This document shows positions 20,365-61,514 of a stretch of DNA of 64,000 bases, piece after piece. Under the pieces are notes generated by a model that saw nothing but the letters and a program-made list of their open reading frames with translations, was not told the origin of the DNA and made no database searches. Origin of the DNA: a virus. Lineage: Duplodnaviria; Caudoviricetes. The stretch is from IMG/VR virus record IMGVR_UViG_3300028887_000080, positions 32,001 to 96,000 of that record; one strand, written 5' to 3'. Position 1 is the first letter of the stretch. Every line of letters begins with the position of its first letter. Made by a program: the position numbers and the translations under genes.

Positions 20365-21189
20365 ATTTTTTATTTTTTGTATTATATTTTTAATGAATCG
20401 TTCTTTACATTCTTTTGGCATTTTTTTATACCGAGACCATCTTATTCTAAATAAACACGTCCATCCATTTTTTTGTAATACTTCAGTTCGTTTTTTGTCG
20501 TGTTTAACAATACGCTTGTCCAAATAATGTTGTTCCCCATCAACTTCAAAATATGTTTTTGTTATTGGAAATGCAAAATCCAAAAAATACCCAAATTGAT
20601 AATAATTTTGTTCATATTCAATATGTTCATCATTCAAAATTTGCTTAAAATACTTTTCACAATAACTATCACCGTGTGAATGATGATTTAATACATAAGG
20701 AACTTTATTCGGGTGCTTTTTCAAATACTTTTTTCTAATATCAGAAAGGTGCTGTTTTTCTTGTTCAGTATGCTTTATTCCTTTTTGTGGACTTTTTAAT
20801 TCACCGTTTTCATAACGGAGTTTAAGTGAAATTGCTGCTTGTTTAACACGCTCATCTGTCTCTTTTGTTAAACCTTTGTTCCACGGACGCTTACCCATCA
20901 TACCATTACGATATACTCTATTTTTGTTTTGTGGACACTTACATTCGTGTGCTTTAAGTGATTTTACACTATAACATTGTTTTCCACAGTATTTACAAAC
21001 AAGACTTTCATCTTTGTCGTAATGATAATTTTCATTACTATGTTTTTTTGAATATACCGCATAACCACAAACGTGATTTTCCAAAGGTTTTCTATTTGGA
21101 TTCAACTTACAAGTTCTTTCGTGAATACCCAATGCACAAGAACGTTTTAACATTTTGTTACAATACCTACAAATATACATCATTTCCAA
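20350..21189 (-). CDS. Free-standing putative homing endonuclease (C2H2-like Zn fingers + NUMOD-like segment + DUF559/Vsr-like nuclease)
   Basis: CRYC..HERTC, CKYCGK..HECKC, PWNKGLTKETD, KHTEQEK, YFLDFA..YFEVDGEQHY..D..R...L...GW..FRIRW; much lower GC than neighbours. Confidence 0.75.
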   Translation of the reverse strand: MEMMYICRYCNKMLKRSCALGIHERTCKLNPNRKPLENHVCGYAVYSKKHSNENYHYDKDESLVCKYCGKQCYSVKSLKAHECKCPQNKNRVYRNGMMGKRPWNKGLTKETDERVKQAAISLKLRYENGELKSPQKGIKHTEQEKQHLSDIRKKYLKKHPNKVPYVLNHHSHGDSYCEKYFKQILNDEHIEYEQNYYQFGYFLDFAFPITKTYFEVDGEQHYLDKRIVKHDKKRTEVLQKNGWTCLFRIRWSRYKKMPKECKERFIKNIIQKIKNATVA

Positions 21190-21236
21190 TATATTATTAT
21201 ATTTATAAGTACGCTAACATTGAGTTATCATCATTG

Positions 21237-21309
21237 TAGCGGGAGCAGGACTCGAACCTGCGATTACGAGATTATGAGACTCGTGAGATGACCACTTCTC
21301 CATCCCGCT
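21237..21309 (-). tRNA. tRNA-Met(CAT), initiator-like body
   Basis: agcgggatggagaagtgg 5' end; CT CAT AA loop. Confidence 0.85.
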
Positions 21310-21315
21310 ATGTTT

Positions 21316-21386
21316 ACAAGGTGGCATAACCATTAACCTTAAATTAAATAAATACTATGGAAACTGTTTTGCTGAAAACCACCTTT
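21316..21386 (-). ncRNA. Sixth copy of the CAGCAA hairpin RNA family
   Basis: acaaggtgg...ttttgctgaaaaccaccttt. Confidence 0.65.
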
Positions 21387-21390
21387 CTTG

Positions 21391-21464
21391 CTGGGATGGA
21401 GGGACTTGAACCCCCGACTTACGGATTAACAGTCCGCCGTTCTGACCAACTGAACTACATCCCA
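21391..21464 (-). tRNA. tRNA-Asn(GTT)
   Basis: gcgga-CT GTT AA-tccgt. Confidence 0.93.
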
Positions 21465-21470
21465 TTGTTG

Positions 21471-21545
21471 TGGGCAAGGCAGGACTTGAACCTGCGACCC
21501 CCGCCTTATCAGAGCGGTGTTCTGACCAAACTGAACTACTTGCCC
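21471..21545 (-). tRNA. tRNA-Ile(GAT)
   Basis: ccgct-CT GAT AA-ggcgg. Confidence 0.93.
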
Positions 21546-21623
21546 GTGAAAATTGAGTTGGTTTATGGTCTAACTCAAGACTAACGACCGCTCTTATTAT
21601 GAAAAACAATAATATGGTTTTTG

Positions 21624-55016: not shown

Positions 55017-55916
55017 ATGGCAAACAAAGATTCTCTCGGCGACCGTATGAAAGAATACGAGGGTGTGTCGAGATACAAACTGACACGGCGTATGCCCGTT
55101 GTAATCCGCATCGACGGAAAATCATTCCATACATTCACAAGATGGTTCAACAAACCCTATGACGTCGTACTGTCCGACACGATGGGACGCACAATGAAAT
55201 ATCTCTGCGAGAATATTCAGGGATGCGTGTTCGGATACACGCAGTCCGACGAAATCACACTCGTCCTCGTGGACTATGAGAAACTGAACACCGCTGCGTG
55301 GTTCGACAACACAGCGCAGAAGATGTGCAGCATCGCCGCTTCTATGGCGACGATGGCGTTCAACAAGTTCTTCGGCGAGGAGGTCGGCAGGTTCTCAAGC
55401 AAAGTGTCCGACCCGCAATGGTATGACTATTACGGACTGCACCGCCTTGACGGAGGTATAGACCAAGAGCGAATCGCCAAACTCAATGTCACATACCGAA
55501 AGGCATACGAACGAGGAGCGATGTTCGACGCAAGGGTGTTCAACGTCCCGAAGGAAGATGTGACCAACTGCGTCCTGTGGAGGCAGCAGGACGCGACCCG
55601 CAACAGCATTGAGATGCTCGGACGCGCATTTTTCACGCACAATCAGTTGTTCAAGAAAAACTGCTCCGACATTCAGGATATGCTGATGACTTGGCACAAC
55701 ATCAACTGGAACGACGTTGACACGCGCTTCAAGCGCGGGTTTTCCTGCATAAGGAAAGAAATGGAGGTTTCTATGCCCGACACCTCAACCGCTTCGCCAA
55801 CGGCAACCGCATCCTGCGGAAAGACGACACGACGAGTGTGGGTGTTGGATATGGAGATGCCGATTATCACGCAGGACAGGGACTATATCGACAAACTTGT
55901 TTTCATCGGGGAATGA
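55017..55916 (+). CDS. tRNA(His) guanylyltransferase Thg1-like protein (3'-5' polymerase)
   Basis: DRMKEYE, IRIDGKSFH.FT, GYTQSDEI, QKM.S..AS, FDARV, WRQ.DATRNS. Confidence 0.93.
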   Translation: MANKDSLGDRMKEYEGVSRYKLTRRMPVVIRIDGKSFHTFTRWFNKPYDVVLSDTMGRTMKYLCENIQGCVFGYTQSDEITLVLVDYEKLNTAAWFDNTAQKMCSIAASMATMAFNKFFGEEVGRFSSKVSDPQWYDYYGLHRLDGGIDQERIAKLNVTYRKAYERGAMFDARVFNVPKEDVTNCVLWRQQDATRNSIEMLGRAFFTHNQLFKKNCSDIQDMLMTWHNINWNDVDTRFKRGFSCIRKEMEVSMPDTSTASPTATASCGKTTRRVWVLDMEMPIITQDRDYIDKLVFIGE

Positions 55917-56976: not shown

Positions 56977-57558
56977 TTACTTTTGCTTTATCAAGCGAAC
57001 GGATACGTCAGCAGCATAAGGTTCATCTATGTCGTAAATTGCGCTAAACCCAGTTGATTTGTCATTGTTTCTAAATTCAAATGTATAAAACAAATATGCG
57101 TCTTTGCCATTTTTTCTGTATTTTTCAAATGTTGTTGTTAAATAAGTTGCAATTTCATCTTTATGAGGTTCATCTGCGGGTAAAAACAGCACGCCTCTAA
57201 AATCATTGGTATAAAAATACCGGCCATATCTTTCTATTATTGTTTTCTCGCCGTTCCATTCTACATAATCAAATGCAAACTTGCCCCAAATAGAATTGCA
57301 TTTCATAAGTTCTTCAAAGTTGCTCTTTGTTGGTAAATCTTCTTTTTTATAGCTGTTCATCGCCATATCATAAGTGATTGTTGAACCATAATACGGGTCA
57401 TATCCTTTTTTTTGTGAGAACTCTGGTTCATTTGTATTTTTCCAAAGCACAGTCCCTCCCATATCAACCCATTCCGAGTTGCTTTTAACTATATTTTCCA
57501 ATTTTGATATTAAATCATATTGTTTTGACATTTCGTCAATTCTCATTATATGTGCCAT
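56977..57558 (-). CDS. Late protein with capsid-targeting-like N-terminus and Bacteroidetes 'VDLG..W' (FISUMP/DUF1566-like) domain
   Basis: MAHIMRIDEMS; WVDMG..VLW..TN, LPT...FEEL, LFLPA, SVRL. Confidence 0.6.
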   Translation of the reverse strand: MAHIMRIDEMSKQYDLISKLENIVKSNSEWVDMGGTVLWKNTNEPEFSQKKGYDPYYGSTITYDMAMNSYKKEDLPTKSNFEELMKCNSIWGKFAFDYVEWNGEKTIIERYGRYFYTNDFRGVLFLPADEPHKDEIATYLTTTFEKYRKNGKDAYLFYTFEFRNNDKSTGFSAIYDIDEPYAADVSVRLIKQK

Positions 57559-57651
57559 AGGTTCAAATTTATATTTCCATTATTTATACGACAAAAAAAC
57601 AAACCCCGCGATTGCTCACGGGGTTTGCGGGTTTCCCATTCCGGCGGTCTG

Positions 57652-58206
57652 TTAGAGACCGATGAGTTGTTCGTCCCAATAGTCGCAGCGGAAAGTGAGT
57701 TGCGCCTCGGTTGCGTCGCTTGACGAATAGTCGAGGTCACCGCCGACCTGCAACTGACCTGTCGGGAACACGTCCTTGCAGATGATTTTGCGGTAGATGC
57801 TGCCGTCACGGTTGTACTGCACGATAATCATACTGCCGACGTACTGCGATTTCATTCCGCTCATACCTGTGAGGGGGTTCCAAATCACGTTGCACCATTT
57901 TCTCAATGTGGTGTAGATGTAGTTTTCGTTCGAGTCGTTCAAGTTCATAGTGAAAGTGACCTGCAAGTCCAAAGTGGTCTTGTCAGGGAACCCTGCGTAT
58001 GAACGCGTCGCCTGTTTGAATTTCTGTTCTGTCGTTGAAACCGACGGGTTGAGCCCGTCAAGTCCAGACACTTGTTTGACGTGTTCAAGCAGAAGAGCTT
58101 GGTCGCCTCCTGTCGGAGGGAATATCGTGACCTCGAACAATGCCTTGTAGACAGGTTCCCAATGTCTTGTACTTGGTACAGAGTTACTATAATGTGGTAA
58201 TGCCAT
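57652..58206 (-). CDS. Tail tube protein (T4 gp19-like)
   Basis: EP.Y..LFEV, RSYAG, TF..N, LRKW...I.NP.TG, YNRDG, VFP, LDYS, FRCDYW. Confidence 0.88.
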   Translation of the reverse strand: MALPHYSNSVPSTRHWEPVYKALFEVTIFPPTGGDQALLLEHVKQVSGLDGLNPSVSTTEQKFKQATRSYAGFPDKTTLDLQVTFTMNLNDSNENYIYTTLRKWCNVIWNPLTGMSGMKSQYVGSMIIVQYNRDGSIYRKIICKDVFPTGQLQVGGDLDYSSSDATEAQLTFRCDYWDEQLIGL

Positions 58207-58307
58207 AATCCATTTATATATTTTTCGGTTGGAACGCCTGTGTGGATTTCGTTCCGTTATTATTTATATGAGGTGTTTTTTTGTTCCATTTTTTTGTTAT
58301 ATTAAAT

Positions 58308-59599
58308 CGGAATTATCCCTTTTAGTCTTGTAAAAATGTGAGTGATATAAATATAGTACAGTATTTCAATCAGATGGAAAGAACGTACACATACAAGTTC
58401 AGGTTGTATCCGAACAAGGAGCAAGAGATTTATCTTGCCAATGTATTTGGATGTTGCAGACTTGTGTACAACCATTTCCTTGATGAGAAGAAACAACAAT
58501 ATGAAGAAACAAAAACAAGTGATTCATACAATGTTCAATCAGGTAAACTGACACTACTCCGCAAGACTGATGGGTATGAGTTTCTAAAAAATGTTCCTTT
58601 ACAAGTTTTGCAGTGTAGTTTACGAAATATGCACACTGCATACGAGAATTTTTATAAACACAGAAGTTCCTATCCGAAGTTCAAGAACAGAAGGGACAGA
58701 CAGTCGTTCAAACTACCACAGGAGCAATCCTTCAAAATAAAAGATAACAAACTTTACATCCCAAAACTAAAAAGCGGGATTGACATTGTAATGGAACGTG
58801 GGATTGTAGGCAAAATTTGCTTTGTAACCATCTCAAAAAACAAGGCAGGCAGATACCACATAGCAATTACTGTTAAACAGGATTACATACCTTATGGAAA
58901 GACCAATCGTTCAGTCGGTCTTGACCTCGGCATAAAGGATTTCGTCATCACAAGTGACGGAATGAAATACAAGAACCACAGGAGCATAATCAGGACATTA
59001 AAACGCAAACTAAAACATAACCAAAGGCATCTGTCAAGAAAGATACACGGAAGCAAGAGATACGAAAACCAAGTGTTGAAATGCAACCGAATCTATCAGA
59101 AGATAACAGATGTCAAGACCGATTACATACACAAAATCACTAATGAACTTGTCAGAAACTATGATGTGATAAAGGTTGAAGATTTGAACATCAGAGGGAT
59201 GATGAAGAACCACAAGTTGGCAGAGGCAATATCAGAATGTAATTGGTATCAGTTCATACAGACGCTTGAATACAAGTGCTTGTGGAATGAAAAGGAACTT
59301 ATAAAGATAGACCGTTTCTATCCGTCAAGTCAGATGTGCAGTGAATGTGGTTATGTTGAGAAAAAAGTCAGAAACCTAAATGTAAGGGAATGGACTTGCT
59401 GCAACTGCGGTTGTCATCACGACAGGGATGTCAATGCGGCAAGGAACATTTTGAAATATAATTCGGTGAGGAACACCGAAAACAGTCGTGGAGTTGTGAA
59501 ACAACTGAATGAAAAACCTAATTTGATTAGTGATTGTTCGGACAACTGTGAAGCGACTATTGAACTTGATAATTTACAAGATTAAAAGGGATAATTCCG
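58308..59599 (+). mobile_element. TIR-bounded non-autonomous transposon carrying tnpB (27-bp TIRs, 8-bp TSD TATTAAAT)
   Basis: Left TIR 58308-58334 and right TIR 59573-59599 (26/27 match); tattaaat at 58300-58307 and 59600-59607. Confidence 0.88.
58374..59585 (+). CDS. tnpB: RNA-guided endonuclease TnpB (IS200/IS605 type), RuvC triad intact
   Basis: YKFRLYPN.EQ, FGCCR.VYN, VGLDLGIK, VEDLN, PSSQMCSECG, WTC..CG..HDRDVNAARNI. Confidence 0.95.
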   Translation: MERTYTYKFRLYPNKEQEIYLANVFGCCRLVYNHFLDEKKQQYEETKTSDSYNVQSGKLTLLRKTDGYEFLKNVPLQVLQCSLRNMHTAYENFYKHRSSYPKFKNRRDRQSFKLPQEQSFKIKDNKLYIPKLKSGIDIVMERGIVGKICFVTISKNKAGRYHIAITVKQDYIPYGKTNRSVGLDLGIKDFVITSDGMKYKNHRSIIRTLKRKLKHNQRHLSRKIHGSKRYENQVLKCNRIYQKITDVKTDYIHKITNELVRNYDVIKVEDLNIRGMMKNHKLAEAISECNWYQFIQTLEYKCLWNEKELIKIDRFYPSSQMCSECGYVEKKVRNLNVREWTCCNCGCHHDRDVNAARNILKYNSVRNTENSRGVVKQLNEKPNLISDCSDNCEATIELDNLQD

Positions 59600-59618
59600 T
59601 ATTAAATAAATACGAAGT

Positions 59619-61514
59619 ATGGACAAATCGGAACTTTACAGCATAATCTTGGAGGACAGGCACATTCAGGAGAATAAATTCAGGATTGAGTATCCTGAAT
59701 TTTATGCAGAATTGTGCGATATTGAATTTCCTGAAGGTTTCACGTTCAGACAGAAACTTTACCATTACTTCAACGATGACATATCGTTTGGGCTTGGTGT
59801 ATGCGAATGCGGCAATCGCTGCGAGTTCATCTCGTTGAACGAAGGTTACAAGGCGCATTGTTCAAGGAGTTGTGCCACGAAGTCCTTGTCCGTGAAAGAG
59901 AAAAGAAAAAAAACCTGCCTTGAAAAATATGGGGTCGAGCACGAATCCAAATGCGAGGTGATAAAGGAAAAGAAACGGGAGACCTGCAAGTCGCATTACG
60001 GGGTTGAATATCCTATGCAGTCGGATGAGGTCAGAAAGAAATCAATGGAAACAAACATCGCCAATATGGGTGTTGCGTGTCCGTTTGAATCCGAAACGGT
60101 GAAGGAAAAGTCAAGAGAGACCTGTATGTCGAAATATGGCGTGGAACACCATTCAAAATCAGAGGAGATAAAAGAAAAGAAACGGAAGACGTCTATGGAA
60201 CATTATGGCGTGGACTGCCCGTTGAAATCGGATGAAGTGAAGGGAAGGATAAAGGAAACGGTTAAAGAGAAATACGGCGTGGAATACGTTATGCAGTCGG
60301 AGGATGTGAAAGGGCGTGCAAGGAAAACCAACCTTGAGCGATATGGAACCGACTGTGTCTTGAAACTTGACAGCACAAAGGAGAAAGCAAAAAGAACAAG
60401 TATTGAAAAATACGGGGTTGAACATCCTATGCAGTCGGAGGATGTGAAACGGAAAGTTTCGTCCACTTGCAAGAAACACTATGGCGTCGATTATCCCATA
60501 CAGTCGGACATAATAAAGGAAAGGACAAAGCATACCAACATTGAGAGATATGGTGTTGAATACGCAACGCAATCGGAGGAGTTCAAAAAGAAACTTATTG
60601 AAACGAACATTGAAAAATACGGTGTGCCGTACACCTGTATGCTCGATGGCGTCCGCAGACATTCAAACGATTCCAAACCGAACTTGAATTTCGCCGAACT
60701 TCTGTCGGAAAACGGGATTGGATACGAGCGCGAGTTTTCTGTCGGGAAATATGTATATGACTTCAAGGTCGGGGACACGCTTGTTGAAATCAACCCGACA
60801 ATCACGCACAATTCGTTTCTTGACATATTCGGCGGGAATGCAAAGGACAGGAAGTATCATTTTGATAAAACGTCGGTTGCTGCGGAAAACGGTTACCGTT
60901 GCATACACGTTTGGGATTGGGACGACTCCGCGAAGATAGTGAATATGCTGAAACCGAAGGAAACGCTATATGCAAGGAAACTGTCGGTGGCGGAGGTGAA
61001 CCCTGTGGAAGCGGACGTTTTCCTGTCAAAGCATCATATACAGGGAACCTGCAAGGGTATGTGCGTGTGCGTCGGACTTTATTTGGACGGCGCGATTGTC
61101 GAGATTATGGCTTTCGGGAAACCGAGATACAACAGGAAATGCGAATGGGAACTTCTGCGCCTGTGCACCGACGGCAACTATATCGTTGTCGGCGGGGCGG
61201 AGCGGTTGTTCTCGCACGCAGTCCGCGAGTACGGTATGCACAGCGTGGTGTCATATTGCGACAATTCAAAGTTCACAGGTGATGTGTATGCAAGACTCGG
61301 TTTCAAAAAAACTTCTTTTTCTTTCGGAAAGCATTGGTTCTGCAAAAAGGACAAACGCAGCCACATAACCGACAATATGCTTCGGCAGCGCGGGTTCGAC
61401 CAACTGTTCGGAACCGACTACGGAAAGGGCACGAGCAACGAAACCCTTATGCTTGAGCGGGGATTCCTTCCTGTGTACGACGCAGGTCAATACACCTTCC
61501 TGTGGACGGCATAG
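59619..61514 (+). CDS. Hef-like repeat nuclease paralog 4 (11 YG repeats)
   Basis: Same architecture as 1016..2998. Confidence 0.7.
   Translation: MDKSELYSIILEDRHIQENKFRIEYPEFYAELCDIEFPEGFTFRQKLYHYFNDDISFGLGVCECGNRCEFISLNEGYKAHCSRSCATKSLSVKEKRKKTCLEKYGVEHESKCEVIKEKKRETCKSHYGVEYPMQSDEVRKKSMETNIANMGVACPFESETVKEKSRETCMSKYGVEHHSKSEEIKEKKRKTSMEHYGVDCPLKSDEVKGRIKETVKEKYGVEYVMQSEDVKGRARKTNLERYGTDCVLKLDSTKEKAKRTSIEKYGVEHPMQSEDVKRKVSSTCKKHYGVDYPIQSDIIKERTKHTNIERYGVEYATQSEEFKKKLIETNIEKYGVPYTCMLDGVRRHSNDSKPNLNFAELLSENGIGYEREFSVGKYVYDFKVGDTLVEINPTITHNSFLDIFGGNAKDRKYHFDKTSVAAENGYRCIHVWDWDDSAKIVNMLKPKETLYARKLSVAEVNPVEADVFLSKHHIQGTCKGMCVCVGLYLDGAIVEIMAFGKPRYNRKCEWELLRLCTDGNYIVVGGAERLFSHAVREYGMHSVVSYCDNSKFTGDVYARLGFKKTSFSFGKHWFCKKDKRSHITDNMLRQRGFDQLFGTDYGKGTSNETLMLERGFLPVYDAGQYTFLWTA

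Follow-up and report, generated by a model that had tools for sequence, protein, structure and literature searches.

The locus described here raises the question of which kind of mobile element carries its tnpB gene, and whether the ends of that element can also take part in the guide RNA (omegaRNA) that overlaps the gene. The stretch analysed, hereafter the window, is 64 kb long and comprises bases 32001-96000 of a 124-kb IMG/VR phage record (IMGVR_UViG_3300028887_000080) that is estimated to be 39% complete. The record comes from a large cattle-rumen phage, and a Pfam scan of the window detected a T4-type prohead protease gene near the tnpB cassette. In window coordinates, the element occupies 58308-59599 (1292 bp), and an intact tnpB is the sole long open reading frame (ORF) between its terminal inverted repeats. 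This cassette is a non-autonomous, transposase-less derivative of the IS1595 family of DDE cut-and-paste transposons, with tnpB and its omegaRNA as the sole cargo. Taken as a whole, an IS1595 derivative that draws its guide from the flanking DNA and homes is the best explanation of the locus, and we put its probability at roughly 70%.

The cassette and its IS1595-type ends

The left terminal inverted repeat (27 nt, plus strand, 58308-58334) begins with CGGAATT, and the right one (27 nt, minus strand) lies at 59573-59599; the two arms differ by 1 mismatch. A pattern search found 2 sites only for this repeat in the window against 0.00 expected from shuffled sequence. The repeats are bordered by an 8-bp target-site duplication, TATTAAAT, at 58300-58307 and 59600-59607, and the two copies are identical at 8/8 positions. 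An element of the IS200/IS605 family would be recognised by asymmetric hairpin ends without inverted repeats or duplication, and this description fails here, with 27-bp repeats and an 8-bp duplication present. Only 39 bp separate the left repeat from the tnpB start codon, leaving no room for a left-end hairpin. The gene runs on the plus strand from the ATG at 58374 to the stop codon at 59583-59585 and encodes 403 amino acids (aa), with the RuvC residues D184, E269 and D352 and a CxxC..CxxC zinc ribbon intact. Its stop codon falls within the right repeat, 14 bp before the element end, and this distance is 13-32 bp in every copy with intact ends.

A T4-type late promoter motif, TATAAATA, stands on the plus strand at 58346-58353, 20 nt 5' of the tnpB ATG, and is kept in all aligned tnpB siblings. 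The window contains 24 copies of the motif against 1.28 expected, an enrichment of about 19-fold, and many copies lie just 5' of listed ORF starts on the matching strand (e.g. at 963, 3019, 5911, 10494 and 61564). The motif is therefore a genuine promoter-like signal of the phage. The sequence-only reading had described the repeats and duplication, an internal late promoter and a stop codon supplied by the right repeat, and all of these features were recovered.

The same repeat bounds elements that encode a transposase. An exact repeat scan of IMG/VR returned 13 loci. On a 387-kb phage contig (G001), a 3388-bp element whose repeat is identical over the first ~25 bases, and which has a perfect duplication (ATTTTAAA), encodes, at L021:1108-2037, a 310-aa protein matching DDE_Tnp_IS1595 (PF12762, 117 bits) and, over its full length, NF033547 (181.6 bits, cut-off 75), together with three passenger ORFs. 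Two further cassettes lie on this contig, one of 1285 bp with tnpB (duplication AGTGATTT) and one of 592 bp (duplication TTTTTAAA). The genome of the window's own phage holds a second bounded element outside the window (G000:C1 ~20569-21601, or L003:1502-2534; 1033 bp) with a perfect duplication, TATTTTTT; instead of tnpB, it carries a gene whose 298-aa product shows weak similarity of the phosphoribosyltransferase type (35.9 bits at best, below cut-off).

In a scan of prokaryotes, with one genome per species, 53 stretches contained the repeat, and nearly all came from rumen or horse-gut metagenome-assembled genomes (MAGs) labelled Bacteroidales. There were 17 paired elements among these stretches, with duplications perfect in five and matching at 7/8 positions in three. 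Transposase-encoding copies (phmmer E 1e-192 or lower) were L270 (2396 bp, perfect duplication TTTTTTTA, on a Bacteroidales MAG contig) and L258 (2687 bp), which is an entire MAG contig and hence has no flanks in which a duplication could be read. The flanks of L270 and of the TnpB-less L251 encode FolD, an Na/H exchanger, a restriction-modification methylase, AbiH and a radical-SAM protein, so these loci are bacterial chromosomes. The residence of this family in Bacteroidales-labelled genomes and in large phages fits Bacteroidales hosts, for which labelling and binning are weak evidence.

Perfect 8/8 duplications were found in the window, L003, L009 (two elements), the 3.4-kb element of G001, L221, L223, L237, L251, L266, L270 and L271, that is, at least 12 at different sites. 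The mobile unit extends from repeat to repeat and generates an 8-bp duplication. The IS1595-type carrier that had been proposed from the letters alone is upheld, as the same ends and 8-bp duplication bound IS1595-family transposase genes, and the cognate transposase that it implied is encoded by the 3388-bp element of G001, L258 and L270. The window copy would be mobilised in trans by such transposases, encoded in other genomes on elements with the same ends. Its CGGAATT ends fit CGGnnTT, the end consensus of the ISNha5 subgroup in ISfinder's table, and passenger genes are present in the family; the cassette may belong to that subgroup, as had been proposed. ISNha5 itself is assigned to the IS1595 family and carries passenger genes (Siguier et al. 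2009, as cited in PMC11891212).

These results bear on the simplest alternative, an ordinary IS200/IS605 (IS1341-type) tnpB beside which the repeats and 8-mers arose by chance or serve phage regulation. It is indeed the IS200/IS605 TnpB model that gives the protein its highest score (401.6 bits, short of the 425 cut-off), and its nearest relatives without the terminal inverted repeats, at 45-54% identity, have canonical ends. This alternative is refuted by the absence of any chance expectation for the repeats, their occurrence around IS1595 transposase genes, the many perfect duplications at separate sites and the precise empty site described below.

The cargo of TnpB-less elements was located at L008:9348-10262, L009:8579-9064 (minus strand), L010:3129-3488, L270:4115-4447, L251:4144-4782 and L263:4833-5300. 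These proteins differ in length and often start with a similar ten-residue leader, such as M-x-H-I-K-R-[ILV]-[ND]-E-M or ..F-x-E-F-I-x-E, which TnpB is without. The leader resembles the T4 capsid-targeting sequences that end in a prohead-protease site, (L/I)-x-E, and TnpB-less cassettes may deliver their cargo into the phage head.

tnpB siblings and the predicted omegaRNA

The window TnpB contains the Pfam domains HTH_OrfB_IS605, OrfB_IS605 and Cas12f1-like_TNB, all over cut-off, and matched the NCBIfam model guided_TnpB (NF040570) with 321.9 bits (cut-off 100). An alignment of 19 sequences, covering the clade and its canonical relatives, shows no variation at D184, E269, D352 or the four zinc cysteines. 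In a protein search, about 90 clusters were at least 64% identical, many of them on 100-400 kb contigs, and below a gap came a group at about 54%. The members whose DNA was read were L029, L030, L031, L032, L033, L115, L213, L221, L223, L229 and L022, together with L028 (56% identity, diverged ends); all those of the upper group have the same ends or remnants of them. About a dozen tnpB siblings thus stand at other sites, and the search for copies with the same repeats at different loci, proposed in the sequence-only reading, was answered positively. The 3' ends of L027 (54%) and of the relatives at 45-53% are of the canonical IS605 type, and the repeat is absent there. When three copies were aligned end to end, similarity ended exactly at the outer bases of the repeats. 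Among tnpB copies, the duplication is perfect in the window, L029, L221 (AAACTTAT) and L223 (AACAAATA), and partial or absent in the others.

Profile scans of IMG/VR and metagenome contigs with the TnpB alignment were swamped by generic TnpBs and gained a single clade member, L115. The GenBank phage collection held no close relative of the element or its flanks, and only short matches to TnpB-coding sequence were obtained, in Bacillus and Lactococcus phages. In five Bacteroidales MAGs with the same ends, tnpB was not found at E <= 1e-30; these genomes are incomplete, and absence is not implied. The closest relatives without the inverted repeats (~53-54% identity) have TATAAATA just 5' of tnpB (L027:2900-3000 and L038:1400-1500), and L038 is on a viral contig; an IS605-type ancestor may already have been present in such phages before it gained IS1595 ends.

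The predicted omegaRNA scaffold, based on alignment and folding, occupies 59462-59599 on the plus strand, and its 5' end may be further upstream. The omegaRNA-like motifs described earlier were located at 59464-59478, 59484-59493 and 59550-59558. An alignment of the 3' region of 14 clade members (A5) gave a fold with a hairpin at 59462-59480, a long-range stem between 59485-59489 and 59553-59557, and a central stem between 59505-59512 and 59534-59541. In a proposed pseudoknot, the loop GGAA (59470-59473) would pair with the TTCC that lies within the right repeat's tip (59595-59598). Over 29 scaffold pairs, 97.3% of cells were paired, compared with 87.7% in shuffled controls and 26-45% when the partners were slid, and compensatory changes were found in 11/29 pairs. 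Pairing above the controls, together with these changes, indicates that the scaffold is under selection as RNA. An Rfam scan of 58200-59750 at E up to 1 returned no match.

Comparison with the canonical relatives provides the predicted boundary of the guide. In those relatives, similarity between copies stops right after ..GT[TC]CA[CT], where the guide starts. The GT[TC]C of this 3' end can base-pair with G[GA]AC, the loop sequence of the first hairpin, and in one relative both partners are changed (GGAGC and GCTCAC). Solved structures of ISDra2 TnpB complexes have such a pseudoknot adjacent to the guide. In the clade with IS1595 ends, the loop reads AGGA[AG] and the element ends in ..TTCCG (..TTTCG in two members), so that the loop-tip pairing is kept in 100% of clade cells and both of its sides are changed relative to the canonical form. 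Counted from the conserved GTGAAG motif, the element end is 40-48 nt away in the clade and ~40 nt away in canonical relatives. Because scaffold length and loop-tip pairing match those of the canonical relatives, the scaffold probably ends at the outer base of the right repeat, 59599, and the guide probably starts in the flank at 59600. The predicted guide segment (plus strand, 59600-59617) would consist of the duplication and the right flank, and its only perfect match in the window is its own site. The right flank had been named as the guide at the outset; the scaffold comparison supports this claim, which stays a prediction from sequence.

If the scaffold instead ended before the right repeat, the fixed repeat itself would serve as the guide and direct TnpB to the ends of sibling elements, in competition or as an aid to excision. 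A 6-nt indel between the conserved GAAGCGAC..TTGAAC motif and the repeat could mark such a boundary, and the repeat is the one sequence common to all copies. Against this arrangement, the canonical relatives have ~40 further scaffold bases after the equivalent motif, equal to the distance here to the outer end of the repeat. A guide made of the repeat would also leave the loop-tip pairing without use, give each copy a perfect self-target at both ends and fail to explain the TTA found beside the duplication (see below). We regard it as very improbable.

Target sites, empty alleles and a candidate homing cycle

If the guide starts with the duplication, the target-adjacent motif (TAM) would be the bases directly left of the duplication. 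In the window these are TTA (58297-58299), the putative TAM position in the empty site. TTA stands directly 5' of the duplication in 4/4 tnpB copies with a perfect duplication and in 5/6 copies with at least 6/8 duplicated bases, compared with 2/24 half-sites of TnpB-less elements (Fisher p = 0.0008 against 5/6), in a small sample whose copies were chosen by database returns. On the right side, TTA was found in 1/6 half-sites of tnpB copies. The A next to the duplication is common to all elements and probably reflects a transposase preference, and the preceding TT is specific to tnpB copies. The TAM of canonical relatives was unreadable from their left ends, too few copies having shared ends. 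The sequence-only reading had placed a TAM just left of the duplication; TTA does occur there, and its function as a TAM stays putative.

Public contigs were compared with window positions 57000-60900. Empty-site contigs were found in two sequencing runs from different bovine-gut studies, X2 (1249 nt) and X7 (402 nt). Both follow the left flank to 58303, continue with three other letters and resume at 59606. These alleles are without tnpB, both repeats and one 8-mer. Relatives without tnpB that keep the repeats and both 8-mers, the pattern named in advance as contrary to a mobile cassette, were thus not what X2 and X7 contained. A joint from 58332 to 59577 in run X1 was considered as an excision product and rejected as an assembly join through the inverted repeat (26-letter side, the letters between not being known).

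The neighbouring genes were also used as anchors. The gene directly right of the cassette (59619-61514) has a 631-aa product in which four stretches match DUF7487 (228 bits); in IMG/VR the relatives of this protein were at most 47% identical, too distant for an empty-site comparison. A protein look-up found the identical upstream 184-aa protein on two contigs. One is from the window's own sample and is broken at the repeat, and on the other the neighbour gene is 167 bp away, with no tnpB, which is suggestive only. A 299-aa ORF lies upstream of the cassette at 55017-55916, and a contig with the identical 184-aa neighbour encodes a 299-aa product in the corresponding gene-order place, for which a Pfam match to Thg1 (tRNA-His guanylyltransferase-like) is recorded.

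A mechanism can be proposed from these observations. The tnpB gene would be transcribed as a phage late gene, late in infection, and the repeat tip TTCC would replace the 3' pseudoknot strand of canonical omegaRNAs. Each insertion would then create a new guide from the duplicated 8-mer and the right flank. TnpB would cut element-less alleles, in which TTA is followed by the target, in co-infecting phage genomes or after excision, and recombinational repair with an occupied copy as template would spread the cassette or restore it, much as homing endonucleases do. A restorative or homing role has been shown for IS605-type elements, according to work cited in PMC10691335 and PMC13565253, and this role would here have moved to a DDE carrier in a phage. 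It is possible, and proposed only tentatively, that the cassette is a working prokaryotic counterpart of the partnership between Fanzor1 and terminal inverted repeats, with a pseudoknot made by the repeat tip, re-programming at each insertion (TAM TTA) and RNA-guided homing between co-infecting phages.

Several observations weigh against an IS1595 derivative with a flank-derived guide and homing. The empty allele reads TATTTGTAT (TATT-TGT-AT) and not the duplicated TATTAAAT, and is not the exact pre-insertion sequence; relative to the duplicated 8-mer, three letters are changed and one is extra, and the remaining flank is ~97% identical. The three changed letters are positions 5-7 of the predicted target, within its predicted seed. 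A footprint, resistance or simple divergence may each account for the empty allele, and at this single site the changes would fit alleles resistant to homing. Within the clade, the four pseudoknot pairs show only one-sided wobble changes, and RNAalifold offers as an alternative a local mini-hairpin of three pairs in the repeat tip. The 124 kb available for this phage, estimated to be 39% of the genome, yielded no transposase. A clear duplication is absent in 7/12 tnpB copies, and one or both ends have been lost in L216, L222 and L225, so that many copies are no longer mobile. It has also been argued that cut-and-paste DDE transposons gain little from TnpB (PMC13565253, a 2026 review).

Some of the same facts would suit a tnpB that is a mere passenger of the IS1595-type shell, serving the phage in another way (e.g. 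by cutting host or rival DNA with an unrelated guide) or decaying. The same shells carry unrelated cargo, namely, the phosphoribosyltransferase-like protein and small proteins with conserved N-termini, and the shell therefore needs no TnpB. Moreover, a clean duplication is missing from most tnpB copies, and several end-less copies keep the gene and the RNA core. A passenger would not account for a scaffold conserved to the outer base of the repeat, with a hairpin loop that fits the repeat tip, for a TTA specific to tnpB copies and to their left side, or for a stop codon placed so close to the element end in every copy with intact ends. The passenger explanation is accordingly considered unlikely, though it has a better claim than a guide made of the repeat.

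The end-less clade copies (L216:1201-2355, L222:1201-2430 and L225:601-1824) retain the RNA core and a TTCC or TTTC remnant, and they look like immobilised copies. L216 adjoins a phage DNA polymerase B gene with an intein.

Relation to known elements and significance

TnpBs associated with DDE transposons have been described before. The main text of Altae-Tran et al. (PNAS 2023, PMC10691335) presents six such branches (DDE-1 to DDE-6), all with inverted terminal repeats, and solo TnpBs within nearly identical ends, which suggest mobilisation in trans; the 3' ends of these tnpB genes lie at most 250 bp from the transposon end. That text names IS630 only, for DDE-6, and the 2026 review lists ISL2, IS630 and IS1031; IS1595 is named neither in that main text nor in the review. 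A search of the literature for both 'TnpB' and 'IS1595' yielded no description of such an element, and none of the listed IS1595 passengers found in the literature search was a TnpB. The present cassette resembles the published branches and solo TnpBs in having a TnpB between symmetrical inverted repeats shared with DDE elements, a presumed movement in trans and a tnpB end near the transposon end. It differs in its tailed-phage carrier, its phage late promoter and an RNA pseudoknot apparently rebuilt from the repeat tip. The principle of DDE-linked and solo TnpBs between inverted ends has thus been on record since 2023 (PMC10691335), and what is new here is the IS1595 partner family, the tailed-phage setting, the late promoter and the proposed repeat-tip pseudoknot.

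Fanzor1 elements of eukaryotes and their viruses are also non-autonomous and nuclease-only, with inverted ends and a duplication, and the present cassette likewise lies in a virus genome. The guide-RNA scaffold of Fanzor1 includes both the repeat and the duplication (Yoon et al., NAR 2023, PMC10711439); the duplication is short and fixed, and no pseudoknot is predicted. Here, in contrast, the duplication is 8 bp long and variable, and would therefore belong to the guide and not to the scaffold, and the pseudoknot is seemingly kept. The protein, too, is an ordinary prokaryotic TnpB and not a Fanzor.

The 'transporter IS' and non-autonomous cassettes of the IS1595 family (e.g. ISNha5) share the inverted ends, the AT-rich 8-bp duplication and passengers beside or instead of a transposase. 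The present family differs in its TnpB passenger and in its occurrence in both Bacteroidales MAG contigs and their large phages. With the IS1341 group of IS200/IS605 (solo tnpB), the cassette shares the protein family, an omegaRNA that overlaps the 3' end of tnpB and a predicted hairpin and pseudoknot architecture; the closest relatives without the inverted repeats reach 45-54% identity. The difference lies in the ends: asymmetric hairpins and scarless insertion by a fixed tetra- or pentanucleotide in that group, and inverted ends with a duplication here. The cassette is a well-documented natural example of a carrier swap by TnpB.

The benefit that TnpB brings to cut-and-paste DDE transposons is still debated, and this cassette family provides a compact natural test case of ~1.3 kb: its partner transposase is known, there are many independent insertions as well as empty alleles, and a guide boundary has been predicted along with a candidate TAM. 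The family likewise suggests how the guide RNA of an IS605-type element can be adapted to the ends of a foreign transposon, which is also the step from which eukaryotic Fanzors arose. For the rumen, it would mean that one IS1595-type family shuttles cargo between Bacteroidales and their large phages.

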